Virus record (IMG/VR): IMGVR_UViG_2850796239_000003
Span: 1-14,699 of that record
Length of the DNA: 14,699 nucleotides
Reading direction: 5' to 3' (one strand)
From: a virus
Taxonomy: Duplodnaviria > Heunggongvirae > Uroviricota > Caudoviricetes
Shown: positions 1-14,699 of the stretch, piece after piece
Layout: every line of letters begins with the position of its first letter
Position numbering within the stretch: the first letter of the stretch is position 1
Notes under the pieces: model-generated
What the model was told of the DNA's origin: nothing
The model's database searches: none
Seen by the model: only the letters and a program-made list of their open reading frames with translations
Made by a program: the position numbers and the translations under genes

Positions 1-201
1 TTACCCATTGGCGCGGCTTAAGAGCTTATTTTTGAATTCACAATGGTCACGATATAACCATCTTGCTCGCCCGTGGATAACTTTGGCTTTTGGCAGGTCG
101 CCGGACTTAATCCGGTCATAGATGAAGGTTTTACCAAAGCCAGTATCAGCCATGATGAATTTCAAATCAACCAGTGAATCAGGTTGTAGTTCGTGTTGCA
201 T
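1..201 (-). CDS. AlpA/TorI-family winged-helix prophage regulator, excisionase-like (66 aa)
   Basis: Complete ORF, ATG at 201-199 and stop at 3-1. GGAG lies 9 nt upstream of the ATG. The translation has the AlpA/Xis-type pattern (TGFGKTFIYDRIKSGDLP...GRARWL) and the 66-aa size typical of TorI-like recombination directionality factors. Family call is from memory, not a search. Confidence 0.7.
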   Translation of the reverse strand: MQHELQPDSLVDLKFIMADTGFGKTFIYDRIKSGDLPKAKVIHGRARWLYRDHCEFKNKLLSRANG

Positions 202-246
202 GAGTGCTATCTCCGAATATGGAATCGAACCTGCAAATCAGGTAAT

Positions 247-267
247 AAAAAAACCGCATTGATGCGG
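247..267 (-). terminator. Putative rho-independent terminator after the 346-561 ORF
   Basis: On the minus strand: stem CCGCA / TGCGG with loop TCAA, followed by TTTTTTTATT. Confidence 0.45.
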
Positions 268-345
268 CGATGGTAGGTCTGGATATCTTGATAAATGAAA
301 ATACCTCATCGAGTGTGAGGCGGTGTGATTTCTTTATTTACACTC

Positions 346-561
346 TTAATGTTTGTCAGTGAATGGTTTCCCCATCTCCAGTAATGCCTTACTCATCTCA
401 TTTCGTAACTCTATAGCCATCCTGACGGCTTCAACCTGTGCAGGATGTCGGTTAATTGCTGGAGAATATCGTCGGGAGCGAAGGATTGAGAAAACAAAGA
501 TAATGCAAGCAACTATCTGAATTGCATTGCATGTTATTGATACAATGTGAATTGCAGCCAT
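346..561 (-). CDS. Hypothetical small single-pass membrane protein (71 aa)
   Basis: ORF with a hydrophobic N-terminal ~28 residues (IHIVSITCNAIQIVACIIFVFSIL) followed by a basic RSRR and a charged C-terminal tail. Weak GGGG RBS. The start sits immediately after the upstream terminator U-tract, so expression is uncertain. Confidence 0.3.
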   Translation of the reverse strand: MAAIHIVSITCNAIQIVACIIFVFSILRSRRYSPAINRHPAQVEAVRMAIELRNEMSKALLEMGKPFTDKH

Positions 562-572
562 CTACTACCCCA

Positions 573-598
573 AATAAAAAAACCGCCATCAGGCGGCT
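573..598 (-). terminator. Putative rho-independent terminator after the zinc-ribbon gene
   Basis: On the minus strand: GCCGCC TGAT GGCGG(T) hairpin followed by TTTTTTTATTT. Confidence 0.55.
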
Positions 599-662
599 TG
601 GTGTTCTTTCAGTTCTTCAATTCGAATATTGGTTACATTGTTTTCATATATGAATAAATAAA

Positions 663-842
663 TTAGCTTTTTTCGTTGCCTTCGCGTTCTTTATTAATTT
701 TGACAAACTCGTTTTTACCAAGCTCTCCAAATGCGTCTTTAGAGTCGTTGTATCCGCAATCGCAGCACACATAATCACCAGACCATTCACGCATTGTTTT
801 TTCTTTTGCAATATTTCCAGAACCGCATTTTGGACAAGACAT
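663..842 (-). CDS. Standalone zinc-ribbon protein, YgiT/MqsA-N-terminal-like (59 aa)
   Basis: Start taken at the ATG at 842-840, which has GGAGG 7 nt upstream; the ORF-track start at 875 is a TTG with no RBS. Two Cys pairs, CPKCG and CCDCG, about 20 residues apart, then an acidic/lysine-rich tail. The resemblance to the MqsA zinc-binding domain (MKCPVC...YCVHC...ESDAF) is from memory. Confidence 0.55.
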   Translation of the reverse strand: MSCPKCGSGNIAKEKTMREWSGDYVCCDCGYNDSKDAFGELGKNEFVKINKEREGNEKS

Positions 843-979
843 ATCACTACCTCCAAAGCATGAGTGAGATGACAACGTAACATTGATTGGAGATTAACAA
901 TAGATTGCTGATGTAAAAGATATGTATAAGCTTCGCTTTCAAAGTGGAGGATCTGATAGCGGCATCTAGGCTGTGTCCC

Positions 980-1495
980 TTAATTACGTAAGCGTTGATA
1001 AAAGAGTCGGATGCAGCCCAGTTTCACCATCGCCAGGTAATTTCTCGCCGTTTTGTCGTAACGCGTGGCGATGCGGCGATATTCTTTCAGCCGCCCAAAG
1101 CACCGTTCAACGACATTACGATTGCGGTACGCATCACGATCAAGCTGTGCACGTCCATCCGATGCCATTTTCTCATTTGACTTTCGGGGGATTACTGCCT
1201 TTATACCGTTATTTTTCAGCTCGTTGCGCAATGCGCGCCCTGAATACGCTTTATCAGCCAGTACCGCATGTCCACGGCGTTTCATGCTGCCGTTCTGACG
1301 CTGAACGCCAATCCCGTCCAGAAGTCGTTGCGCGAACTGGCTTTCATGAGCTTGTCCGGGGCTTAGCACGATATTTAACGGGAGGCCACTTCCGTCTGTT
1401 GCCAGATGGATTTTGGTGCCAAAACCGCCGCGAGAGCGACCCAGCCCATTATCTCCGTCGATATCGGGATGTTTTTTTGAGCACCGGCGGCACAT
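980..1495 (-). CDS. IS5-family transposase orfB (DDE catalytic part, -1 frame relative to orfA)
   Basis: Contains GLGRSRGGFGTKIHLATDG, LADKAYSG and the Y-x2-R-x3-E-x6-K signature (DAYRNRNVVERCFGRLK). Overlaps orfA by about 120 nt across an A-run. Confidence 0.85.
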   Translation of the reverse strand: MCRRCSKKHPDIDGDNGLGRSRGGFGTKIHLATDGSGLPLNIVLSPGQAHESQFAQRLLDGIGVQRQNGSMKRRGHAVLADKAYSGRALRNELKNNGIKAVIPRKSNEKMASDGRAQLDRDAYRNRNVVERCFGRLKEYRRIATRYDKTARNYLAMVKLGCIRLFYQRLRN

Positions 1496-1824
1496 TTCAG
1501 CGCCCGGATATTACTGCCATCCAGCGCGGTGGCAGACCAGTCAATAAAGCCGTTTGCATCAAGTAGCGAAAGCAACCTGTTGAAAATAATATTAATCACG
1601 CCTGACTTTGACCATCGGTTAAAGCGGTTATAAACAGTTTTCCATGACCCATATCGTTCGGGTAAATCGCGCCATGGTGCACCGGAACATAACACCCAGA
1701 ACATGCCATTGATGATTTTACGGTGCTCAGCCCATGGGCGTCCGGCCCGTGGTGTGGCGGGTTCAGGAGGTAACAGGGGCTTGATGATGGTCCATGCCTC
1801 ATCGGGAAGGTCGTAGCGAGCCAT
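1375..1824 (-). CDS. IS5-family transposase orfA (149 aa, N-terminal DNA-binding part)
   Basis: MARYDLPDEAWTIIKPLLP...GRPWAEHRKIINGMFWVLCSGAPWRDLPERYGSWKTVYNRFNRW, the conserved N-terminal module of IS5/IS427-type transposases. Confidence 0.85.
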   Translation of the reverse strand: MARYDLPDEAWTIIKPLLPPEPATPRAGRPWAEHRKIINGMFWVLCSGAPWRDLPERYGSWKTVYNRFNRWSKSGVINIIFNRLLSLLDANGFIDWSATALDGSNIRALKCAAGAQKNIPISTEIMGWVALAAVLAPKSIWQQTEVASR

Positions 1825-1884
1825 AGTTCAATATGTTGTGTAAACAGACAGTTACTATAGCTCAGATGATTAAGGGACACAGCC

Positions 1885-2901
1885 TACATCACTGTTGTTG
1901 TTGAATATCAGCAACTGGAGGAAGCGATCAAGCTTAACCAACTGGAAGAAATTCTCGCGCCGGTTCGCCAGCGAATCGTTACCGACCTTGAAACAGAGCT
2001 TGCTCACTTCATGATGAATAACGGTGCGTTGTCACTTGGTAGCCCCAATACTCCAATCACCAAATGGTCTGATGTTGCGCAGACGGCATCTTTCCTGAAA
2101 GACCTCGGCGTTAATGAAGGTGAAAACTATGCTGTAATGGATCCATGGTCTGCACAGCGACTTGCTGATGCGCAGACTGGTTTGCACGCTTCAGATCAAT
2201 TGGTTCGTACTGCATGGGAGAATGCACAGATCCCAACCAATTTTGGCGGCATTCGCGCACTGATGTCTAATGGGCTTGCCTCTCGTACGCAGGGGGCATT
2301 TGGCGGAACACTGACAGTCAAAACACAGCCAACTGTTACCTATAACGCAGTTAAAGACTCATACCAGTTCACTGTAACATTGACCGGAGCGACAGCCAGC
2401 GTTACAGGTTTTCTGAAAGCTGGTGATCAGGTTAAATTCACCAATACCTACTGGCTGCAACAGCAGACCAAACAGGCGTTGTATAACGGAGCCACACCAA
2501 TTAGCTTCACTGCAACGGTTACTGCTGATGCTAATTCAGACAGCAGTGGCAATGTGACGGTTACGCTTTCTGGTGTTCCGATTTATGACACTACAAACCC
2601 GCAGTACAACTCTGTAAGTCGTCAGGTAGCGGCAAACGATGCCGTATCTGTAGTAGGCACTGCTAGCCAGACAATGAAGCCAAACCTGTTCTATAACAAG
2701 TTCTTCTGTGGACTTGGCTCTATCCCACTGCCGAAACTGCACAGTATTGATTCTGCTGTTGCAACATATGAAGGTTTCTCCATCCGCGTACATAAATACG
2801 CAGATGGCGATGCCAACGTGCAAAAAATGCGCTTTGACTTACTGCCTGCATATGTGTGCTTTAACCCTCACATGGGCGGTCAGTTCTTCGGTAATCCGTA
2901 A
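1885..2901 (+). pseudogene. Major capsid (coat) protein of a P22-like phage, 5'-truncated at the IS boundary (about 338 C-terminal codons)
   Basis: The reading frame is open from the first base after IS copy 1 to TAA at 2899-2901, with no plausible start or RBS at the 5' end. It lies immediately upstream of clear gp4 and gp10 homologs, the coat position in P22-like late operons, and shows loose local similarity to P22 coat. No N-terminal coat sequence exists left of the IS. Confidence 0.65.
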
Positions 2902-2905
2902 TAAC

Positions 2906-2930
2906 AAGGGGCTTACGCCCCTTTTATGTT
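2906..2930 (+). terminator. Rho-independent terminator/attenuator just downstream of the coat gene
   Basis: AAGGGGC TTAC GCCCCTT hairpin followed by TTATGTTTT on the plus strand, 5 nt after the coat stop. Confidence 0.55.
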
Positions 2931-2943
2931 TTAAGGAAACAAT

Positions 2944-3129
2944 ATGGATCGCATGAGTGTATTCCTTGCCGCAGATAACGAATCCGGGCATGTACAGGCC
3001 GTTATCGCAGAAAAAGACTTCCAGTTTTTCGAAAAGTTGGGCTTTGTTGCCTCAGTTGATGAATTGAAACCGACCAGTAAGCGAGGTCGTAAGGCGGCAG
3101 ACAATGGCAACAGTACTGACAAAGGGTGA
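2944..3129 (+). CDS. Hypothetical small protein between coat and gp4 (61 aa)
   Basis: ATG preceded by AAGGAAA. Position matches the small ORF found between coat and the gp4 homolog in Sf6-like genomes. Overlaps the gp4-like start by 26 nt. Confidence 0.45.
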   Translation: MDRMSVFLAADNESGHVQAVIAEKDFQFFEKLGFVASVDELKPTSKRGRKAADNGNSTDKG

Positions 3130-3586
3130 GATCGTCCTTTTTGCGCTTCGTAAGTTTGCTATTGCTTCTAATGCATCGCTGACTGATGTTGAGCCGCAAT
3201 CAATTGAAGATGGTGTAAATGATCTGGAAGATATGATGTCCGAGTGGATGATTAACCCCGGCGACATTGGTTACGCTTTCGCAACTGGAGATGAGCAGCC
3301 ATTACCAGATGATGAGTCAGGTCTTCCAAGAAAATACAAACACGCAGTAGGCTATCAGTTATTGCTGAGAATGCTATCTGATTACAGCCTTGAGCCAACT
3401 CCGCAAGTTCTCAGTAACGCCCAACGCTCATATGATGCCTTGATGACCGACACTCTGGTTGTTCCTTCAATGCGACGACGTGGAGATTTTCCTGTAGGAC
3501 AGGGTAATAAATATGACGTGTTCACATCTGACCGATATTATCCAGGCGATCTCCCTCTGATTGATGGCGATATCCCAAATTCATAG
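3104..3586 (+). CDS. Head-to-tail adaptor / packaged-DNA stabilisation protein, P22 gp4-like (160 aa)
   Basis: Translation aligns along its N-terminal half with recalled P22 gp4 (window ...[34 protein letters not shown] versus P22 ...[34 protein letters not shown]). Correct size and position. Confidence 0.88.
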   Translation: [160 protein letters not shown]

Positions 3587-3594
3587 GTGAATAA

Positions 3595-5013
3595 ATGCCT
3601 ATTCAGCAACTTCCGCTTATGAAAGGTGTCGGCAAAGACTTTCGAAACGCCGACTATATCGACTATCTGCCAGTGAATATGCTGGCTACACCCAAAGAAA
3701 TCCTGAACAGCAGCGGATATCTTCGCTCATTCCCTGGCATTGCCAAACGCTCTGATGTGAACGGTGTATCTCGCGGCGTCGAGTACAACATGGCGCAGAA
3801 TGCTGTTTATCGTGTGTGTGGTGGCAAGCTGTACAAAGGAGAAAGTGAAGTCGGTGACGTCGCCGGAAGTGGTCGCGTATCAATGGCGCATGGTCGTACA
3901 TCTCAGGCGATAGGTGTTAATGGTCAACTGGTCGAGTATCGCTATGATGGCACGATTAAAACCGTCTCAAACTGGCCTACAGATAGCGGATTCACTCAGT
4001 ATGAGCTAGGTTCGGTTCGTGACATTACGCGCTTACGTGGGCGTTATGCGTGGTCAAAAGACGGTACTGATTCATGGTTTATCACTGACCTTGAAGACGA
4101 ATCACATCCTGACCGATACAGCGCACAATATCGCGCAGAATCTCAGCCTGATGGCATCATCGGCATAGGGACATGGCGAGACTTCATCGTCTGCTTTGGT
4201 TCATCGACGATTGAATATTTCTCCCTGACTGGTGCAACCACCGTTGGTGCTGCTTTGTATGTCGCCCAGCCATCATTGATGGTGCAAAAAGGCATCGCCG
4301 GGACTTACTGCAAAACGCCGTTTGCTGATTCCTATGCTTTCATCAGCAACCCGGCAACGGGTGCGCCGTCTGTGTACATCATCGGTTCCGGTCAGGTATC
4401 ACCAATCGCCAGCGCGAGCATTGAGAAAATACTTCGCTCCTACACTGCTGATGAACTGGCTGATGGTGTGATGGAGTCTCTGCGATTTGATGCGCATGAG
4501 TTGCTGATTATCCATCTTCCGCGTCACGTCCTTGTGTACGATGCATCTTCAAGCGCCAATGGTCCGCAATGGTGTGTGCTGAAAACAGGCCTGTATGACG
4601 ATGTGTACCGCGCTATCGACTTCATTTACGAAGGCAATCAGATAACGTGCGGCGATAAGCTGGAATCCGTGACCGGGAAACTGCAGTTCGATATCAGCAG
4701 CCAGTACGACAAGCAGCAGGAACACCTGCTGTTTACTCCGTTGTTCAAAGCGGATAACGCCAGATGCTTCGATCTGGAGGTGGAATCATCCACTGGCGTA
4801 GCTCAGTACGCCGACCGCCTGTTCCTCTCTGCAACCACTGACGGCATCAATTACGGACGTGAGCAGATGATTGAGCAGAATGAACCGTTCGTTTACGACA
4901 AACGCGTTTTGTGGAAGCGAGTAGGGCGCATCAGGAAAAATGTCGGCTTCAAATTGCGCATTATCACGAAGTCACCTGTCACTCTGTCTGGCACTCAGAT
5001 AAGGATTGAGTAA
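3595..5013 (+). CDS. Packaged-DNA stabilisation / tail hub protein, P22 gp10-like (472 aa)
   Basis: N-terminus [49 protein letters not shown] matches recalled P22 gp10. Same length as P22 gp10. AGGTG RBS. Stop overlaps the next start (TAATG). Confidence 0.88.
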
Positions 5014-5861
5014 TGGCGGATTCGAATCTCAATACACCTGTTATTGTTCAGGCGACGCGGCTCGATACATCAATCCTTCCACGCAATATCTTCTCGCAGT
5101 CGTATCTGCTTTACGTTATCGCACAGGGTACTGATGTTGGTAACGTGGTGAATAAGGCCAACGAGTCCGGACAGGGCGCTTATGACGCGCAGGTAAGGAA
5201 CGATGAGCAGGATGTGATTCTGGTTGATCACGAAATTCGACTGGCATCAGCTGAAGCGAAGATACAGGACCACGAAACAAGGATCACTAACGCAGAAGCA
5301 GCGATAGTCGGCCTTGATTCGCGATTAACGACAGCAGAAAACGATATTGATTATCTGACTGATGAAGTTGTCGCCATTCAAAACACGCTTTCAGACCATG
5401 AAACGCGCATCGATGCTCTGGAGTATGCCACTACTCGCAAGAAGTCAGAGGTTGTTTACTCTGGCGTATCTGTAACCATCCCGACAGCGCCGACTAACCT
5501 TGTTAGCCTGCTGAAAACGCTCACGCCGTCATCCGGCTCGTTGGCACCATTCTTCGACACCGTTAACAACAAGATGGTTGTGTTCAACGAGAACAAAACC
5601 TTGTTCTTCAAGTTGTCGATTGTCGGGACGTGGCCCAGTGGAACCGCAAACAGGTCAATGCAGCTAACCTTTTCCGGCTCTGTTCCTGACACGTTGGTCA
5701 GCAGTCGTAATGCGGCGACAACAACCGATAACATCTTGTTAGCTACGTTCTTCAGCGTGGATAAAGACGGCTTTCTTGTCACAAATGGCAGCACGTTAAC
5801 CATTCAGTCAAATGGTGCGGCGTTTACTGCCACAACCATCAAGATAATCGCGGAGCAGTGA
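5013..5861 (+). CDS. Tail needle, P22 gp26-like N-terminus with C-terminal knob domain (282 aa)
   Basis: N-terminal ~60 residues ([43 protein letters not shown]...[16 protein letters not shown]) match recalled P22 gp26. A heptad-rich coiled-coil stretch is followed by a C-terminal domain of ~140 residues that P22 gp26 lacks, as in Sf6-type needles. Confidence 0.88.
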
Positions 5862-6316
5862 TGATTCAGTTCAAACCAACGCGAAACATCGACCTGATCG
5901 AAGCAGTAGGAAATCACCCTGACATTATCGCCGGGAGCAACAACGGCGATGGATACGACTACAAGCCTGAATGCCGTTACTTTGAGGTTAACGTGCATGG
6001 GCAGTTCGGCGGCATTGTTTACTATCAGGAGATTCAGCCGCTGACATTCGATTGCCACGCCATGTACCTGCCAGAGATTCGCGGCTTCAGCAAGGAAATC
6101 GGGCTGGCGTTCTGGCGATACATTCTGACTAACACCACCGTTCAGTGTGTCACATCGTTCGCTGCACGCAAATTCCGCCACGGGCAGATGTACTGCGCAA
6201 TGATTGGCCTTAAGCGTGTCGGAACCATCAAGAAATACTTTAAAGGCGTGGATGACGTGACGTTTTACAGCGCCACACGCGAAGAACTAATCGACTTCCT
6301 GAATCACGGGAGATAG
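5861..6316 (+). CDS. P22 gp14-like virion assembly protein (151 aa), by synteny
   Basis: ATG at 5861 overlaps the needle stop (TGATG) with GGAG 5 nt upstream; the ORF-track GTG at 5858 is less likely. Size and position match gene 14 between the needle and ejection-protein genes. Confidence 0.65.
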   Translation: MIQFKPTRNIDLIEAVGNHPDIIAGSNNGDGYDYKPECRYFEVNVHGQFGGIVYYQEIQPLTFDCHAMYLPEIRGFSKEIGLAFWRYILTNTTVQCVTSFAARKFRHGQMYCAMIGLKRVGTIKKYFKGVDDVTFYSATREELIDFLNHGR

Positions 6317-6318
6317 CT

Positions 6319-6856
6319 ATGTTATATGCATTTAAGCTGGGCAGAAAACTGCGCGGCGAGGAACCTTATTGCCCTGAAAAAGGCGGGAAAGGTGGCTCCG
6401 ATAAAAGCGCAAAGTATGCAGCAGAAGCTCAGAAGTATGCCGCAGACCTGCAAAATCAGCAGTGGCAGACGATCATGAAAAACCTTGCTCCGTTCACGCC
6501 TCTTGCGGAGCAGTATGTTAACCAGCTTCAGAACCTTTCCAGTTTAGAAGGTCAGGGGCAGGCACTTAATCAGTATTACAACTCTCAGCAGTATAAAGAC
6601 CTTGCAGGTCAGGCTCGTTACCAGAGTCTTGCTGCTGCGGAGGCGACGGGTGGACTTGGTTCGACAGCCACAAGCAATCAACTGGCTACGATCGCGCCTA
6701 CTCTCGGTCAGTCTTGGTTATCAAACCAGATGAGCAATTACAACAATCTGGCAAACGTTGGGCTTGGTGCACTTCAAGGTCAGGCAAACGCCGGGCAGAC
6801 GTACGCCAACAACATGAGCAGCATTGCACAGCAAAGCGCAGCTCTTGCCGCTGCTA
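6319..6856 (+). pseudogene. Ejection protein, P22 gp7-like, 5' fragment interrupted by IS copy 2
   Basis: ORF starts at ATG 6319 and runs into the IS, where the frame terminates artificially (...ARLCPLII*). Q/N/A-rich ejection-protein-like composition. Position matches gene 7. Confidence 0.7.
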
Positions 6857-6872
6857 GGCTGTGTCCCTTAAT
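6857..6872. repeat. Left terminal inverted repeat of IS copy 2
   Basis: GGCTGTGTCCCTTAAT, a perfect reverse complement of 7757-7772. Confidence 0.85.
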
Positions 6873-6916
6873 CATCTGAGCTATAGTAACTGTCTGTTTA
6901 CACAACATATTGAACT

Positions 6917-7366
6917 ATGGCTCGCTACGACCTTCCCGATGAGGCATGGACCATCATCAAGCCCCTGTTACCTCCTGAACCCGCCACACCACGGGCCGGA
7001 CGCCCATGGGCTGAGCACCGTAAAATCATCAATGGCATGTTCTGGGTGTTATGTTCCGGTGCACCATGGCGCGATTTACCCGAACGATATGGGTCATGGA
7101 AAACTGTTTATAACCGCTTTAACCGATGGTCAAAGTCAGGCGTGATTAATATTATTTTCAACAGGTTGCTTTCGCTACTTGATGCAAACGGCTTTATTGA
7201 CTGGTCTGCCACCGCGCTGGATGGCAGTAATATCCGGGCGCTGAAATGTGCCGCCGGTGCTCAAAAAAACATCCCGATATCGACGGAGATAATGGGCTGG
7301 GTCGCTCTCGCGGCGGTTTTGGCACCAAAATCCATCTGGCAACAGACGGAAGTGGCCTCCCGTTAA
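6917..7366 (+). CDS. IS5-family transposase orfA (149 aa)
   Basis: Identical translation to copy 1 orfA. Confidence 0.85.
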   Translation: MARYDLPDEAWTIIKPLLPPEPATPRAGRPWAEHRKIINGMFWVLCSGAPWRDLPERYGSWKTVYNRFNRWSKSGVINIIFNRLLSLLDANGFIDWSATALDGSNIRALKCAAGAQKNIPISTEIMGWVALAAVLAPKSIWQQTEVASR

Positions 7367-7761
7367 ATATCGTGCTAAGCCCCGGACAAGCTCATGAAAG
7401 CCAGTTCGCGCAACGACTTCTGGACGGGATTGGCGTTCAGCGTCAGAACGGCAGCATGAAACGCCGTGGACATGCGGTACTGGCTGATAAAGCGTATTCA
7501 GGGTGCGCATTGCGCAACGAGCTGAAAAATAACGGTATAAAGGCAGTAATCCCCCGAAAGTCAAATGAGAAAATGGCATCGGATGGACGTGCACAGCTTG
7601 ATCGTGATGCGTACTGCAATCGTAATGTCGTTGAACGGTGCTTTGGGCGGCTGAAAGAATATCGCCGCATCGCCACGCGTTACGACAAAACGGCGAGAAA
7701 TTACCTGGCGATGGTGAAACTGGGCTGCATCCGACTCTTTTATCAACGCTTACGTAATTAA
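7246..7761 (+). CDS. IS5-family transposase orfB (DDE domain, -1 frame)
   Basis: As copy 1 orfB, with two Arg to Cys differences (TGC at 7504-7506 and 7615-7617 where copy 1 has CGC). Confidence 0.85.
   Translation: MCRRCSKKHPDIDGDNGLGRSRGGFGTKIHLATDGSGLPLNIVLSPGQAHESQFAQRLLDGIGVQRQNGSMKRRGHAVLADKAYSGCALRNELKNNGIKAVIPRKSNEKMASDGRAQLDRDAYCNRNVVERCFGRLKEYRRIATRYDKTARNYLAMVKLGCIRLFYQRLRN
7264..7270 (+). other. Candidate -1 programmed frameshift heptamer A AAA AAC joining orfA to orfB
   Basis: In the orfA frame the codons are caA AAA AAc. A -1 slip enters the orfB frame (..SKKHPDID..). The same motif occurs in copy 1 at 1471-1477 as a reverse complement. Confidence 0.5.
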
Positions 7762-7772
7762 GGGACACAGCC
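7757..7772. repeat. Right terminal inverted repeat of IS copy 2
   Basis: ATTAAGGGACACAGCC, a perfect reverse complement of 6857-6872. Confidence 0.85.
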
Positions 7773-7774
7773 TA

Positions 7775-7926
7775 ATGCCAATAAACCATCAAGTCTTCAG
7801 ACTGCAATTAGTGGCGGAACGTCTGGTGCGATTGCCGGTGCAGGTCTTGCCAGCCTTTTGGGAACATCAACACCTTGGGGCGCTGGCATTGGTGCTGGTA
7901 TCGGATTGCTTGGTTCGTTGTTTTAA
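7775..7926 (+). pseudogene. Ejection protein, P22 gp7-like, 3' fragment (about 50 codons)
   Basis: Removing the IS and one TA copy restores one continuous frame: ...AAN ANKPSSLQTAISGGTSGAIAGAGLASLLGTSTPWGAGIGAGIGLLGSLF, stop at 7924-7926. The rebuilt ORF is about 229 codons, the size I recall for P22 gp7. Confidence 0.65.
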
Positions 7927-7935
7927 GGGGTAATC

Positions 7936-9402
7936 ATGGCTACTTGGCAAGGATCAAATGGCGGATTGTTGGCTGGTATCGGCGGCGTCAACTCAAACGC
8001 TCCGAGCGTAAATGACATCGGCAATACGCTTCAGCTTATCAGGCAGAACAATGATATTGAGCGTTCAGGCGCTAACAATGTTGGGCTGACTGCTTTGCAA
8101 GGCCTTTCAGGTATTGCGGGGGTGTTTCAGCAGGAAAAGCAGGCTCAGCGGCAGAAAGAATTTCAGCAGGCATACGCTAATGCTTATGCGTCTGGTGATC
8201 GCGGTGCTTTGCGTCAGTTGGCTACTCAATATCCAGACCAGATTGAATCCGTTCGTAAAGGCATGGGATTCATTGATGAAGATCAGCGTAATTCTATCGG
8301 CACCTTAGCGGCTGGCGCACGCCTTGCGTCATCGTCTCCAGAAGCAATGCAATCATGGCTGCAAAACAACGCCAAGGAACTGACTCGCGTCGGTGTTGAC
8401 CCTAACAGCGTTGCTCAGATGTATCAGCAGAACCCTTCAGGATTTGGTGAGTTTGTTGATCACCTTGGAATGGCTGCTCTTGGTCCGATTGATTACTTCA
8501 ATGTTCAGGACAAGATGGCTGGTCGTGAGATTGACCGAGGCAGACTGGCAGAGACAATCCGCAGCAATCAGGCTGGAGAAGCACTTCAGGCGAGAGGGCA
8601 GGATATTAGCCGAGCAAATGCGTTAACGTCAGCATATGCACCAACAGCCGCAATGCAGAATTACAATCAGTACGCGCAAATGTTAAAGGCGGATCCAGAT
8701 GGTGCAGCGGCATTTGCGGCAGCGGCGGGAATTAATCCCAATGCTAAGAAATTACTTAAGGTTGAAACCAATCCTGATGGCTCGGTAACTAAGTATTACA
8801 CCGATGGCAGCGAGGAAGCCGGAAAACTAAACCAACCTATATCTGGTGATGGCATTAAACCAATTAGCTTGCCACAAGCGCAAAGCATCATAGATAAGGC
8901 TAATGAGGGTTCCAAGAAGGCGGCAGGATTTGCTTTGCGATTAAAAGATTCAATGGACTCAATGAATCAGCTTAGTAAAAGCATTGACCCTAAGCGAGTT
9001 GCATTAATAAATCGCTCTCTTGGTGATGGGACTATTGCAAATTTAAGCCTATCACCAGCGGAGCAGCAATATATGGTAAATGCGAGAGACGCCTTGTATG
9101 CAATTTTGCGCCCAGAAACAGGTGCAGCAATTACTCTGCCAGAGATGCAGGAGTATTCCAAAATGTACCTGCCTCAGCCCGGTGATTCCAAGGCTGCTAC
9201 TGAAACAAAAATGCGAAAAATGCAGGGCCAATATAACTCATTACGTGGTCAGTCTGGTCGCGTTTATGATGCTTTGGTGGTTTCAAGTGCTGCAAATAGT
9301 CAACAACAGAGCAATAGCCAACAACCGGCAAATACCCAACAGCAGCAGAGTCAATCCGGATCATATACCTCAAAATCAGGCATTCAATTTACGGTGGAAT
9401 GA
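7936..9402 (+). CDS. Ejection (internal virion) protein, P22 gp20-like (488 aa), by synteny and size
   Basis: ATG at 7936 preceded by AAGGGG. Gly/Ala/Gln-rich. Q/S-rich low-complexity C-terminal tail. Stop overlaps the next start (ATGA). Confidence 0.7.
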
Positions 9403-11246
9403 TGAAAGTAACTGCAAACGGTAAGACATTTACCTTCCCTGATGGTACGAGCATGGAAGATATTGGCACCGCCATTGATGAGTATTTTGCTGGTCAGGCT
9501 GTTCAGCAACAAACAGTTAATCAGGCCAATAATGAACCAGCACGTGAAGAACCATCATTGATGCAACAAGCTGGCGATTGGCTCACAGGCGGGCAAAGTG
9601 CAGGGCAAATTGCAGAGCAGGCTGGTCGTGGTCTGGTAAACATACCATTTGACGTATTGCAGGGCGGCGCAAGTCTGATTAATGCAATCAGTCAGGGGCT
9701 TGGTGGACCCAAGGTTTTGGATGATGTTTATCGTCCAGTAGACAGACCGACAGACACCTACGCGCAAGCCGGTGAAACAATTGGTGGGTATTTAGTTCCA
9801 GGAGTTGGAACGGCAGGAAGCATGGCTATTGGATCACTGGCAGAGGCCGCAAATCAGAAAGGCGATTTCGCACAAAATGCAGCTAAAAATGCCGGAGTTA
9901 ACCTTGCCGCTCAGGGTGTTCTTTCCGCAGCAGCAAAGGGAATAGGGCGTGGAATAACGGCTATAAAAGGTGATATTGCGCCAGAAGTGGCGAAGAAAAT
10001 TGCCACATCAGAATCGATGGGCGTGACACCAATGACATCTGATGTTATCCCGCCGAAAAATGCTTTCACTCGCGGCCTTACTCAGGATGCCGAGGGGGCT
10101 TTGCTCGGGACAGGCTCAAAGCGAGCGGAGCAATATGCAACGCGTAGTAAGCTGGTAAGTAATTATTTTGACCGTTTTGGTGAGTACAACCCTGATGATG
10201 TGGTGAAATCTCTGACCACCACGTTAAGGGGGCGGAAGGATGCCGCTGGCGCTGTTATCAATGACGTCACCAATAAAATGGGTAATGCCGCAGTTGATAC
10301 CACAAATACCATGAATGCTCTGAATACAGCGATCGCAAGACAGGAACGGCTTGGGACGTCTGCCAATCAAAGCCTGCTTACATCCTTGCGTAACCTACGT
10401 GAAGAATTAGCAAACCCTGCAACTGATTTGGATGTTACGTTTGATCTCTTGCGTCAGCACAGAACAGCATTTAGATCTAATGTTCAGGGAGATGCTATGG
10501 TCTTCCCCAACCAGGCAAAAGCAGCTACCAATATGGTAGAGAATGCAATGTCAAAAGACCTTCGTAACGCAGTTGCTAAAAACCTCGGTGCATCAGACGC
10601 AGCAAAATACCTTAAAGCAAATTCCGATTATGCAAACGTTTATAATAAGGTGCTTAATAAAAACATTGCTAACAAGCTCAACAAGGCAAGCAGTGAAGCC
10701 AGTCCTGAACTTATAAATACCGTTGTATTAAGCAGAAAACCATCTGACGTGAAACGAATCTGGAGCGCACTGGATGATAAGGGGAAAGATGCTATGCGTG
10801 CAGCTTACGTCAGCAAAATAGCGGAAAAGGCCGGGGACTCTCCAGCCAAGTTCATCACTGAAGTTAATAAGCTGAAATCTCAGTCAGGCGGTGAAATTTA
10901 CAACACTATTTTTTCTGGAAAGCACATGAAAGAGCTTGATGCTCTTCATGAAGTTCTACAGCAAACAGCAAGGTCAGACACCGCAAATGTAGTAACTCAG
11001 ACGGGGCAATCGCAAGCCAACAGGATAAGGACGATTGGCGCAACTGCGACCCTTGGCGTATCAATGGGGCTTGAGGCTGGTTTTGGTGCAATGATGCGCT
11101 TGTATGAGTCCAAAGCAGCAAGGAATGCTCTCTTACGTCTGGCAAACACTAAAACTGGAACGCCAGCTTATGAAAGAGCGCTAAATAATGCTGCAAATGC
11201 GATACGCCCTATACTTTCAAGCCAAATTACAGCAGAACAGCAATAA
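9399..11246 (+). CDS. Ejection (internal virion) protein, P22 gp16-like (615 aa), by synteny and size
   Basis: Last gene of the plus-strand late block. The length is close to the ~609 aa I recall for P22 gp16. N-terminus [16 protein letters not shown]. Confidence 0.7.
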
Positions 11247-11260
11247 AAGATAAGATATAA

Positions 11261-11554
11261 CTACCTGATATTACTGCTACTGTTGCATGTTACCGTGTTT
11301 CCAAATCCTGAATTGCAGTTTGTATATGTGTCAACGCGTGTTGGGTAAGGTTGAGTTATAACAGGCTGGCGCGCTTTTTGCTCGATCGCTTGCATTGTGT
11401 TTACAGCCTGGTAATTCAATAAAGCCTGCTGGAATGCTTGGCTTTGTGCTATTTGTTGGGCTTGTTCTTGGCTTTGTAATTGAACATAAAGATTCTGAAG
11501 CTCAAGTCTTGCCTTCATCGACACCTTGCCCGAGCATCTTTGCAGCAAGGACAT
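11261..11554 (-). CDS. Hypothetical Q-rich protein (97 aa; possibly the frameshifted 3' part of the lipoprotein gene)
   Basis: ORF in a different frame, overlapping the lipoprotein ORF by 53 nt. No good RBS at the first ATG; an internal ATG at 11518 has AAGGTG only 3 nt upstream. Gln-rich helical segment and Cys/Asn-rich C-terminus. Confidence 0.3.
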   Translation of the reverse strand: MSLLQRCSGKVSMKARLELQNLYVQLQSQEQAQQIAQSQAFQQALLNYQAVNTMQAIEQKARQPVITQPYPTRVDTYTNCNSGFGNTVTCNSSSNIR

Positions 11555-11726
11555 ACAGCTTAGGTGTTGGTGCTGATGCCATGCGTGAGTCGTTCTTCAC
11601 ACTGGCATCAAGGCAATTAGCCATATCGCTAAGCTTTTGATAGCGTTGTTCGCAACTTGCTTGATAGTCACTTACTTTTGCGCATCCAACCAGCAGAAGC
11701 GGGATAATTAACAGTGATTTTTTCAT
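11502..11726 (-). CDS. Small lipoprotein (74 aa) at the sieA-equivalent position
   Basis: Signal peptide with lipobox MKKSLLIIPLLLVGC and Cys at +1. AGGAG upstream of the ATG at 11726. Lies between gp16-like and mnt, where P22 carries sieA. Confidence 0.55.
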   Translation of the reverse strand: MKKSLLIIPLLLVGCAKVSDYQASCEQRYQKLSDMANCLDASVKNDSRMASAPTPKLYVLAAKMLGQGVDEGKT

Positions 11727-11796
11727 ATGGTTAACTCTCCTTAGTTTTTCACAGGATATCATGAAGGCAATGCCATTTTAGCCGGAAACTAGATTT

Positions 11797-12063
11797 CTAT
11801 GTTTCCTTTTTATTATTGCTATACATGGTCTTAAGCGTTTCAAAAACCATTTTCTTAACCATATCAGATTGTTGTTCTGCCATACGCTCTGCATCGTCAA
11901 TGTAAACTGATGCAGAGCTTTGTTTATCCAATGATTCCTCAATCGCTGCAATTATCTCTGAGTTCAGCGATCTGTTATTCATCTTCGCACGCTGTTTAAT
12001 TTTCGCGTGGAGTTCATGCGGAAGTATCAAGTGAAACTGCGCCTCGTCGTATTTGCTGTACAT
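11797..12063 (-). CDS. mnt: Mnt-like ribbon-helix-helix repressor (immI region), 88 aa
   Basis: Translation aligns with recalled P22 Mnt (window NNRSLNSEII...DDAERMAEQQSDMVKKMVFETLKTMY versus P22 NGRSMNSELL...NDAERLADEQSELVKKMVFDTLKDLY). Start at ATG 12063 is preferred; the alternative ATG at 12096 would give 99 aa. Confidence 0.8.
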   Translation of the reverse strand: MYSKYDEAQFHLILPHELHAKIKQRAKMNNRSLNSEIIAAIEESLDKQSSASVYIDDAERMAEQQSDMVKKMVFETLKTMYSNNKKET

Positions 12064-12134
12064 CCTTGATGCCTCACCAGTTGGGTGGAATGGCATCGTA
12101 ACCTACTGGATAAATACTCAATAGTACCATTTCG

Positions 12135-12139
12135 GTATG
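12135..12139. repeat. IS2 target-site duplication (GTATG), left copy
   Basis: The same 5-mer occurs at 13471-13475, directly abutting both IS2 termini. Confidence 0.85.
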
Positions 12140-12150
12140 TGGATTTGCCC

Positions 12151-13056
12151 CTATATTTCCAGACATCTGTTATCACTTAACCCATTACAAGCCCGCTGCC
12201 GCAGATATTCCCGTGGCGAGCGATAACCCAGCGCACTATGCGGATGCCATTCGTTATAATGCTCGAACGCCTCTGCAAGGTTCTTTGCTGCCGTTAACCC
12301 GTCTGGTTTGGGCATGATACTGATGTAGTCACGCTTTATCGTTTTCACGAAGCTCTCTGCTATTCCGTTACTCTCCGGACTCCGCACCGCCGTGTTCTTC
12401 GGTTCAAGTCCCAACATCCGGGCGAACTGGCGTGTTTCATTAGCCCGGTAGCATGAACCATTATCCGTCAGCCACTCCACTGGAGACGACGGAAGATCGT
12501 TGCCGAAGCGGCGTTCCACCGCTCCCAGCATGACGTCCTGTACTGTTTCACTGTTGAAGCCGCCGGTAGTCACCGCCCAGTGCAGTGCCTCACGATCACA
12601 GCAGTCCAGCGCGAACGTGACACGCAGTCTCTCTCCGTTATCACAGCAGAACTCGAACCCGTCAGAGCACCATCGCTGATTGCTTTCTTTCACGGCCACT
12701 CTGCCTGTATGTGCCCGTTTCGATGGCGGTACAGCAGGTTTTCGCTCAAGCAACAGCGCATTCTGGCGCATGATCCGGTAAACACGTTTGGCATTGATCG
12801 CAGGCATACCATCAAGTTCTGCCTGTCTGCGAAGCAGCGCCCATACCCGACGATAACCATACGTGGGCAGCTCTCCGATAACATGGTGTATACGGAGAAG
12901 CACATCCGTATCATCAGTGTGACGACTGCGGCGGCCATCCATCCAGTCATCGGTTCGTCTGAGAATGACGTGCAACTGCGCACGCGACACCCGGAGACAA
13001 CGGCTGACTAAGCTTACTCCCCATCCCCGGGCAATAAGGGCGCGTGCGCTATCCAC
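12151..13056 (-). CDS. insD: IS2 transposase OrfB (InsD), 301 aa
   Basis: Translation [28 protein letters not shown]... with an IS3-family DDE integrase core. Overlaps insC in the -1 frame. Confidence 0.9.
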
Positions 13057-13379
13057 TTTTTTGCCCGTCCATATTCAACGGCTTCTTTGAGGAGTTCATT
13101 TTCCATCGTTTTCTTGCCGAGCAGGCGCTGGAGTTCTTTAATCTGCTTCATGGCGGCAGCAAGTTCAGAGGCAGGAACAACCTGTTCTCCGGCGGCCACA
13201 GCAGTAAGACTTCCTTCCTGGTATTGCTTACGCCAGAGAAATAACTGGCTGGCTGCTACACCATGTTGCCGGGCAACGAGGGAGACCGTCATCCCCGGTT
13301 CAAAGCTCTGCTGAACAATTGCGATCTTTTCCTGTGTGGTACGCCGTCTGCGTTTCTCCGGCCCTAAGACATCAATCAT
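13014..13379 (-). CDS. insC: IS2 transposase OrfA (InsC), 121 aa
   Basis: [41 protein letters not shown]..., a helix-turn-helix protein. Start taken at the internal ATG at 13379 rather than the 136-aa ORF-track start. Confidence 0.9.
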
Positions 13380-13470
13380 CTGTACTCCAATGACTAGTCT
13401 AAAAACTAGTATTAAGACTATCACTTATTTAAGTGATACTGGTTGTCTGGAGATTCAGGGGGCCAGTCTA

Positions 13471-13475
13471 GTATG
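13471..13475. repeat. IS2 target-site duplication (GTATG), right copy
   Basis: Identical to 12135-12139. Confidence 0.85.
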
Positions 13476-13520
13476 CAATCACATCATGGTTGCATCATAT
13501 CATTCGTCTGGAGCAATGAA

Positions 13521-14676
13521 ATGTCAGATATCACCGCAAATGTTGTGGTAAGCATGCCTTCGCAACTCTTCACTATGGCTCGTTCTTTTAAAGCGGTTGC
13601 CAATGGCAAAATTTATATCGGTAAAATTGACACGGATCCGGTAAATCCTGAAAACCAGATTCAGGTTTATTTAGAGAACGAAGACGGCTCTTACGTTCCT
13701 GTTTCACAACCAATCATCATTAACGCTGCTGGTTACCCTGTATATAACGGACAGATTGCCAAATTCGTTACCGTGCAAGGCCATTCTATGGCTGTTTATG
13801 ATGCGTACGGTGCGCAGCAGTTTTATTTTCCGAATGTGCTGAAGTACGACCCGGATCAGCTTGAGAAAAGATTGTCGTTAAACACGGGAGCTTCCCTGAT
13901 TGGTACATATTCAGGAGCATCGATTCAGTCGGAGATTGACTGTATTAATGAAAGCATTGAAATTATCAATAATGACGAACTTCCAAATCTATCGCTAGGG
14001 GTGGCATCATCTATAAAAACATCGGTCCAAATAATTGATGAAATTAAAGATCCATCTATTTCTTATGATGCATTTGGTAACTCCGTGTTCTACAATGGCC
14101 GCAATTTATTTTGCTTCAGGAGATCACCTGAGCATGTTGATACTTATACAGGCATGCACAGTGTGTGCATAGCAGAAATACTCAACAATGGAGCTTGTAA
14201 AATAATATGGGAATATACTGATAATACTGGCAATGCACCTAAAGATCCTACATTATCAGTCAGTAACCCAGGTAATACACTAATTATTTCTTTTCAGATT
14301 CATAATGTTTCATCTGATACATATACTTCTGGTATTATTGGATATCCTGATTTGTCAAATACTGGTAAGTTTTTATCAAGTTCTGAACTTACCACGGATC
14401 ATAACGTTTTTTTATGGGGTAATGTACTGCAAACTCCATCTGGAAATTTTATAACATCCAGATATAAAATTGATGGCACTGGTGTAGAGATAATTTCTTC
14501 ATCTGATACAAATTTAAACGAAAATACAACATGGTCTATAGTTAGTACACTTTCTGTTGGTTCGTTCCAGACAAGAACATCAGTTAATGAATGCAGTCTT
14601 TCATATTATAGAAATCAACTAGTTGCAATAGTCAGAACTCAGTCAGGCTCTTCTTTGGGTGGTTTTGGATATGCTA
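13521..14676 (+). pseudogene. Tailspike: P22 gp9-type head-binding N-terminal domain fused to a divergent AT-rich receptor-binding domain, 3'-truncated by IS copy 3
   Basis: ATG at 13521 with GGAG 7 nt upstream. The first ~110 residues ([50 protein letters not shown]...[12 protein letters not shown]...NVLKYDPDQ) match the recalled P22 tailspike head-binding domain; the rest is unrelated and visibly AT-rich. The frame runs into the IS at 14677, leaving about 385 codons. Confidence 0.85.
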
Positions 14677-14699
14677 GGCTGTGTCCCTTAATCATCTGA
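14677..14699 (+). mobile_element. IS5-family IS (same element), copy 3, left end only (cut by the window edge)
   Basis: GGCTGTGTCCCTTAATCATCTGA is identical to the first 23 nt of copy 2 and is preceded by TA at 14675-14676. Confidence 0.8.

Follow-up and report, generated by a model that had tools for sequence, protein, structure and literature searches.

Background

The prophages KplE1 (CPS-53), HK620, Sf6 and Kapi1 share a site-specific recombination module that is targeted to the tRNA gene argW. The attachment (att) core of the KplE1/HK620/Sf6 family is a block of 16 nt of that gene, CTGCAGGGGACACCAT (PMC2951348), which is also given in the paper on Kapi1. Excision is switched by expression of the recombination directionality factor (RDF), the control of which was left open; the five mapped sites of this factor, TorI (I1-I5), lie on attL and not in the torI leader, and the integrase, IntS, which is present constitutively, already has a repressor role at attL (PMC2951348). 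In vitro, a 135-bp attR that starts in the last 20 nt of torI, and contains none of the leader discussed below, is able to recombine (PMC3509656). [quoted passage not shown]

Here we describe a tRNA-derived motif in the torI leader of a Caudoviricetes sequence of 14,699 nt (IMG/VR virus record IMGVR_UViG_2850796239_000003, positions 1 to 14,699), the whole of which is referred to as the window. An earlier note on this DNA had proposed the motif as a possible att core or RDF-binding region. Comparative analysis leads us to a different reading, to which we assign a probability of roughly 45%, namely that the motif may be a tRNA-derived, selected cis-element in the torI leader that controls excisionase synthesis by a mechanism that we infer.

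Results and discussion

An exact copy of the argW T-arm in the torI leader

The torI product is TorI/HkaC, the excisionase of KplE1 (CPS-53), HK620 and Sf6, and window position 1 is the exact start of the torI stop codon. Positions 202-270 constitute the entire torI leader, with the following features.

Positions 1 to 201, minus strand: torI, encoding a 66-aa RDF that is 100% identical to K-12 and HK620 TorI
Positions 201-199, minus strand: torI ATG
Positions 211 to 214, minus strand: torI Shine-Dalgarno (SD) sequence GGAG; the leader reads GATTCC, then 7 nt, then GAG
Positions 221 to 236, minus strand: 16-mer TTGCAGGTTCGATTCC, identical to the argW T-arm
Positions 221 to 230, minus strand: conserved core of the 16-mer, GTTCGATTCC (argW G53 to C62), present with at most one mismatch in 27 of 60 leader clusters
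Positions 246 to 268, minus strand: intrinsic terminator of the upstream cassette (stem-loop 268-253, T-run 252-246)

On the minus strand the order is terminator, TTAC CTGAT, 16-mer (236-221), ATATTC, GGAG (214-211) and ATG (201-199), the 16-mer being situated in untranslated leader between the terminator (268-246) and the SD (214-211). Read directly from the window, it is identical at 16/16 positions to the argW tRNA-Arg(CCU) gene of Escherichia coli K-12 (locus L002, 355-370). In argW it corresponds to positions ~47-62 and runs from two variable-loop bases through the 5' strand of the T-stem and the T-loop into the T-stem 3' strand, of which it includes two bases; the K-12 sequence around it is ...GGGCTAATTGCAGGTTCGATTCCTGCAGGGGACACCA. 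The identity ends after 16 nt, where the window goes on ATATTCGGAG and argW goes on TGCAGGGGAC. For a chance 16-mer match between a 75-nt tRNA and the ~1 kb round the recombination module, a rough estimate of the expectation is ~1e-5. The 16-mer is a true, exact copy of the argW T-arm. The robust homologous block measures 10-13 nt, and the extra TTG that raises the E. coli argW match from 13 to 16 could have arisen by chance.

Much of the earlier note is borne out by these results. It had seen a T-stem and T-loop motif at 236-221 of the minus strand, upstream of an excisionase-like gene (torI), and had matched it to the 3' part of a tRNA-Arg gene used by KplE1/Sf6-type integrases; that gene is argW, a host tRNA gene which contains the 16-mer and in which the copy abuts attL. 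It had also held that the motif is not a tRNA gene, and we rejected this candidate too: there is no complete cloverleaf, the identity to argW ends at 16 nt, ARAGORN finds 0 genes in the window and Rfam returns no match at 202-270, even at E=10. Likewise discarded was a regulator site with further copies, TTGCAGGTTCGATTCC being single-copy in the window with up to three mismatches allowed (shuffles give 0.17) and present once in the whole HK620 genome with up to two mismatches allowed.

The same 16-mer stands ahead of torI in K-12 (L002 10276-10291) and in HK620 (1692-1677). P22-type phages, which have a different int/xis module, show homology to the window only from ~272 on, marking a mosaic junction, and E. 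coli prophages with three different upstream terminators have everything from the T-run to torI in common. The 16-mer therefore belongs to the argW-specific recombination module (leader, torI, attP, intS) and lies at its upstream edge. A torI leader of the window type is carried by 1,405 of 5,426 complete E. coli genomes, approximately a quarter.

Two side observations concern the surroundings of this edge. An HK620-type terminator (599-580, within 346-600), which adjoins the torI leader in HK620, is separated from the leader in the window by an insert consisting of an extra 71-aa ORF (346-561, minus strand), with no Pfam match, and its own terminator (268-253); the insert looks like a moron-like cassette placed at the T-run junction. 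On the other side, the leader up to the ATG is essentially identical (at most one base different over ~50 nt) between loci L285/L361 and loci L129 and L131, after which TorI follows in some phages and a 40%-identical second-family RDF in others. With a mosaic junction exactly at the start codon, the leader thus behaves as a shared linker between the backbone and the RDF module.

The attachment core is downstream of torI

In K-12, CTGCAGGGGACACCAT is duplicated, with one copy at L002 370-385 (attL) and the other at 10585-10600 (attR, annotated pawZ), and in HK620 it is found at 1368-1383. The core lies ~75 bp downstream of the torI stop in HK620, K-12 and all relatives, which places it to the left of window position 1, off the window. 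In all 24 species-level loci, as well as the viral contigs reaching past torI, two arm-type repeats overlap the stop codon and are followed by the core. The window retains the following piece of attR.

Positions 1 to 24, minus strand: only in-window part of attR, containing the site (24-5) of attR-IHF2, the inner primer of the in vitro attR (PMC3509656 section 3.6), and the first bases of an arm-type site, GGGTAA (6-1)

A lysogen has two direct copies of the 16-mer near the prophage ends, the first in argW, where it touches attL, and the second in the leader of torI, and it is this arrangement that speaks for the proposal that the 16-mer is an att core or part of attR. Both copies, however, are offset from the true cores. 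What is duplicated is the neighbouring CTGCAGGGGACACCAT, the leader copy being elsewhere (L002 10276-10291), and the published 135-bp attR is active in vitro although it lacks both the leader and the 16-mer (PMC3509656). Prophage junctions of relatives, moreover, retain phage-type bases to the left of TGCAGGG, from which the crossover is placed 3' of the T-loop. The att-core conclusion fails, in spite of the argW copy of the 16-mer, because the crossover occurs in the neighbouring 16 nt; it is refuted for the KplE1/HK620/Sf6 family, and the probability that we would still attach to it is close to nil.

The locus nonetheless has the same module, the same torI and the same target tRNA as KplE1 (CPS-53), HK620, Sf6 and Kapi1, and in attB and attL the 16-mer touches the core. 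It is the leader copy that differs from the att sites of these prophages: it is situated ~290 bp upstream of the real core, with torI between them, and is without overlap bases. Partial copies of tRNA 3' ends at prophage boundaries, such as pawZ at KplE1 attR, are likewise tRNA-derived fragments inside a prophage, but these are made by integration and run from the crossover to the tRNA 3' end, whereas the leader copy is an internal T-arm piece ending where the core begins. No description of a leader copy of the argW T-arm was found in PMC2951348, PMC3509656 or PMC8787464.

Many predicted prophage contigs (L030, L031, L034 and many other IMG/VR loci) end, like the window, 3 nt past the torI stop, which means that gene-based calls of prophage boundaries remove attR and the core. 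At many loci (L033, L052, L058, L113, L156, L157 and L160), a second tyrosine integrase, 27-47% identical to IntS, directly follows the attR core, so that argW carries elements stacked in tandem. A conserved stretch to the right of the core is common to several of these loci, ...CTCCTGACGTC.ACCGAAT.CAATAAAACCCCC....

Ten bases kept or lost as a unit

Leaders of TorI homologues were compared from Enterobacter, Citrobacter-type, Serratia, Pantoea, Edwardsiella and metagenomic phages. In 16 diverse TorI-family leaders with different flanks (alignment A2), GTTCGATT is invariant; it is followed in TorI-family leaders by (C/T/A)C and is preceded in most by CAGG. When the best match to GTTCGATTCC was recorded for 60 leader clusters, 20 were perfect, seven differed by a C-to-T change only, two were degenerate and 31 were at background. 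Shuffles predict 0.1 clusters with at most one mismatch to GTTCGATTCC, compared with 27 of 60 observed, although the leader clusters are related to one another and the counts thus represent non-independent events. In the 27, which span two TorI-like RDF sub-families, all argW-targeting, GTTCGATT(C/T)C is letter-perfect, and 20 of them have a 7-nt spacing between GATTYC and the SD GAG.

The second of these RDF families was found through a scan of viral contigs for a T-arm box followed by an SD and an ATG. Among the matches listed, most are true tRNA genes, and the only recurrent non-tRNA matches are those to TorI, together with a single match, in L285, to the second family (RDF-2). Its members start MRELRDDSLIDMKF and are ~40% identical to TorI; they have arm-type sites GGGCATAA instead of GGGTAAAA, an integrase ~61% identical to IntS and the same argW core. 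Most lineages of this family have the same motif in the same place, behind other 5' flanks (TCTCAG, CCCTG, CCAAG and CTTGG).

About half of the related leaders are without the motif and retain the same core and arm sites. The motif-less leaders look like clean deletions, for example with ...TTATTGCCTG abutting GAGATAATGATATG, and in two lineages (L109-111 and L113) the motif unit is tandemly duplicated. Across the two RDF sub-families, therefore, the 10-nt core of the motif is retained or lost whole. Such a pattern fits a selected but dispensable cis-element and not a scar.

The alternative is a neutral scar, left when an ancient recombination brought part of argW, or a former att site, to a position ahead of the RDF gene, and now functionless. 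A decayed att site is suggested by the layout GATTCC, 7 nt, GAG(A/G)(T/C)(A/C), which may point to a former att junction beside the RDF gene: the leader has GATTCC, 7 nt, GAGATA where the att site has GATTCC, TGCAGGG, GACACC, and L426 has GAGACC. The absence of the motif from about half of the lineages also suits a fossil, as does the fact that extra argW bases differ by lineage, with TTG on the 5' side in E. coli and TG on the 3' side in L009 and L012. IntS-type recombination cannot have produced the leader copy, given that the crossover is 3' of the T-loop. A fossil, however, would not be expected to remain letter-perfect over ten bases between unalignable flanks in two RDF families, nor to be distributed bimodally, kept or deleted and almost never decaying. 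Within E. coli itself, 66 haplotypes show recurrent polymorphism at the flanks and only singleton changes inside the 16-mer. We consider it improbable that the motif is a neutral remnant.

Promoter and operator explanations

The GenBank/RefSeq record of HK620 annotates the equivalent region as a 'phage integration' promoter (1664-1702) with a cII site (1689-1701). The corresponding site in the window is as follows.

Positions 233 to 245, minus strand: equivalent of the HK620 'cII protein' site (annotated there as TTGC-N5-TTGC), reading TTAC-CTGAT-TTGC

A cII-dependent integration promoter of the P_I type at these coordinates relative to hkaC/torI would have cII on TTGC-N5-TTGC, overlapping the first 4 nt of the 16-mer, and transcription starting after the torI SD, such that Int would be made without TorI. 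The same idea, Int without Xis, underlies lambda pI, and the second TTGC and a weak -10 (CTATTC) are as far apart as at HK620 pRE. The HK620 promoter is, however, a sequence-based prediction with a non-canonical spacing: HK620's own pRE and paQ have N6 where this site has N5, a pattern that occurs six times in the HK620 genome against 3.3 expected by chance, and the arrangement of lambda pRE, pI and paQ (TTGC-N6-TTG(C/T) around a poor -35, with a -10 ~12 nt downstream) is absent from the leader site. TTAC stands at the first half-site in the window, in K-12 and in 12 of the 66 distinct E. coli haplotypes. Outside Escherichia, conservation extends neither to the TTGC halves nor to the -10; what is invariant across genera is the supposed spacer, GTTCGATTCC. 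A simple scan, finally, gave no promoter-like site in window 1-1000. We regard a cII-dependent promoter as a very unlikely explanation of the motif.

The second protein to be considered is TorI itself, which already represses PintS. The GTTCG in the motif, together with a second (G/A)T(T/C)CG located 12 nt downstream and abutting the SD, might serve as autoregulatory TorI sites, a notion that overlaps with the RDF-binding region proposed in the earlier note. The mapped TorI sites have the cores GTTCG, GATCG or GTCCG (PMC2951348), and the motif contains CAGGTTCG, with GTTCGGAG or GTCCGGAG at the second position in several lineages. A TorI site was taken here as the 8-bp NNG(T/A)(T/C)CG(C/T), in phased arrays with 10- or 20-bp offsets. 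In 19 of 20 RDF sites from four attP/attL regions (E. coli L041, L155, L172 and L210; the 20th was unread), the pentamer is followed by C or T, but the motif always has A after GTTCG. Nor does the 12-bp offset agree with the attL phasing of 10 or 20 bp, and at 8 bp a TorI site is shorter than the conserved block.

An operator, attractive at first, is undercut by L377, L386 and L392. There, CATTACC or CGTTACC occupies all five of the I1-I5 positions, and the RDF helix is DAGFTxKYF rather than D(T/S)G(F/M)GKTF; the motif is unchanged in these loci. That the motif does not follow the RDF-site specificity (GTTCG versus CATTACC) argues against a TorI operator. Thus, for all that the leader motif has the GTTCG pentamer and the module in common with I1-I5, the RDF-binding proposal is not supported, the mapped sites being on attL, the base after GTTCG being different and the motif persisting where RDF sites are CATTACC. 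The likelihood of a TorI operator appears to us very low indeed.

Within the second RDF family, the five repeated sites at I1-I5, ~20-110 nt past the core, switch among CATTACC, GTTC(G/T) and inverted GAAC when L377, L386, L392 and L396 are compared with L420, L438 and L439 and with L430 and L435. The RDF helix changes along with them (DAGFTxKYF, D(S)GMGKTF and DAGFTDRYF), which amounts to a natural specificity series for TorI-like excisionases.

A possible structure in the leader RNA

A more serious alternative places the function of the motif in the torI mRNA, in which the pyrimidine-rich UUCGAUUCC might pair with the SD (CGGAG) or, with flanking CCUG, form a small hairpin or T-arm mimic. 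Through such an element, translation of TorI would be restricted or the mRNA would be flagged to a host factor that binds T-loops or RNA, and the identity with argW would be historical only. Its candidate hairpin in the window is the following.

Positions 230 to 242, minus strand: inverted repeat CCTG (242-239), ATTTG, CAGG (233-230); across lineages the CCTG partner lies up- or downstream

Folding of this inverted repeat could give a small hairpin in which the 5' part of the 16-mer is included. A CCTG that matches CAGG perfectly occurs close by in 13 of 23 clusters (1.6 expected), the clusters being non-independent, and CCTG-N5-CAGG in E. coli compared with CCTGG-N3-CCAGG in the Citrobacter-type leaders represents compensatory differences. 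True T-arm-like hairpins occur in L007, L009 and L015-17. Single-sequence folds pair UUCGA/UCGGA or AUUYCC/GGAGNU in most lineages, and 74%-89% of cells can pair. The fixed distance to the SD also speaks for an RNA element, and the motif, being downstream of the terminator, is transcribed only as leader RNA, which counts in the same direction.

RNAalifold, on the other hand, yields no consensus structure, fold z-scores range from +0.3 to -1.8, Rfam is without a match, and there is no covariation: a partner slid by one column pairs as well or better, in several registers. The hairpin partner lies on different sides in different lineages. Since any anti-SD sequence would serve, moreover, an RNA element leaves the exact T-loop identity unexplained. 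We view an RNA-level element as possible, though doubtful. A longer-range interaction, in which the motif would pair with CGAAC in codons 4-5 or with the core beyond torI (a 'split tRNA'), was considered separately and rejected; by eye, it is possible in E. coli and is not conserved elsewhere.

A candidate integrase half-site

The mechanism that we prefer, tentatively, is binding of an IntS-family integrase to the motif as a stand-alone copy of the attB 'B' core-type half-site on leader or ribosome-binding-site DNA. The lysogen makes the integrase continuously, and from this position the protein would dampen any torI expression that arises by read-through; the motif would in this way tune the synthesis of the excisionase, the excision switch. 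Action of the same bases in the mRNA, by SD pairing or as a T-loop-like hairpin, would come as a close second to integrase binding. Taken together, the proposition that the motif functions as a working attB half-site that lets the integrase, or a host T-loop-recognising factor on the mRNA, gate excisionase synthesis is one that we put forward as possible and still doubtful.

Integrase binding is suggested by the geometry of the att core. GTTCGATTCC is the attB half-site directly to the left of the inferred 7-bp overlap TGCAGGG, and the motif is oriented toward the core in the same way. In the att core, a 7-bp spacer is flanked by what reads as the two arms of an inverted repeat (GATGTC, TGCAGGG, GACACC). 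In Edwardsiella-type loci (L015 and L017), ~75 nt past the torI stop, both arms change in step (GGCGTA, TGCAGGG, AACGCC), which suggests that TGCAGGG is a 7-bp overlap and that the phage C arm follows the acceptor end of the host's argW. From this inverted-repeat geometry, with its co-varying arms, the GATTCC of argW is placed as the B half-site. Specificity points in the same direction: the motif-bearing elements have one attB in common while their RDF-site and arm-site specificities differ, which leaves core recognition by the integrase as the one specificity of phage origin that they all share.

Several considerations weigh on the other side. A lone core-type half-site is normally a weak target for an integrase, and roughly half of the related leaders do without the motif although their core and arm sites are unchanged. 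Natural attP C sites (GTAGATGTC and TTAGGTGTC) differ considerably from B, so that the integrase evidently tolerates variation, and a letter-perfect 10-mer is correspondingly harder to explain by integrase binding alone. The scan found no sigma-70 promoter in window 1-1000 on either strand; at the leader, a DNA-bound protein could thus act only as a roadblock. Among 200 TorI homologues and the most distant contexts examined, none is a TorI-like RDF at another tRNA and all flank an argW-type core, which makes the link between motif and argW inseparable from common descent or a host factor. With regard to the core-type half-sites (B, B', C, C') of heterobivalent tyrosine integrases such as lambda Int, and to pseudo-att sites, the resemblance is that GTTCGATTCC equals the B arm of attB; the leader motif differs in being a lone candidate half-site on a ribosome-binding region, with no matching overlap and no convincing second arm.

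The remainder of the window

The remainder of the window is a defective P22-like prophage rearranged by insertion sequence (IS) elements, which are listed here.

Positions 967-1886 and 6855-7774: IS4/5-family element in two inverted 920-bp copies, 100% identical, with DUF4096 and DDE_Tnp_1 ORFs
Positions 12151-13056: IS3-family transposase

The IS4/5-family pair brackets 4,968 bp that contain a 5'-truncated P22-type coat gene (2011-2901) and gp10-type/head-completion genes. The early-left genes that are usual beside torI are missing, which identifies the prophage as defective and IS-rearranged. Between an Eag-like cassette and the IS is a 79-aa ORF (644-883, minus strand) with paired Cys motifs (zinc-ribbon-like) and no Pfam match.

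Conclusions

This study corrects two annotations: the leader 16-mer is not an att core, and the 'cII promoter' label of HK620 does not account for what is conserved. Should the motif be only a fossil, the finding would be an ordinary one. If the half-site proposition is true, the leader would provide direct feedback between integrase occupancy and RDF production in the large class of prophages whose int and xis are uncoupled by attP, a type of control for which no description was found, in the literature searched, for any tyrosine-integrase module. A leader element that is letter-perfectly the T-loop of the target tRNA, in two RDF sub-families, offers a concrete and mutable candidate for the control of the RDF, with CAAGCTAA as a designed, altered form of GTTCGATT.
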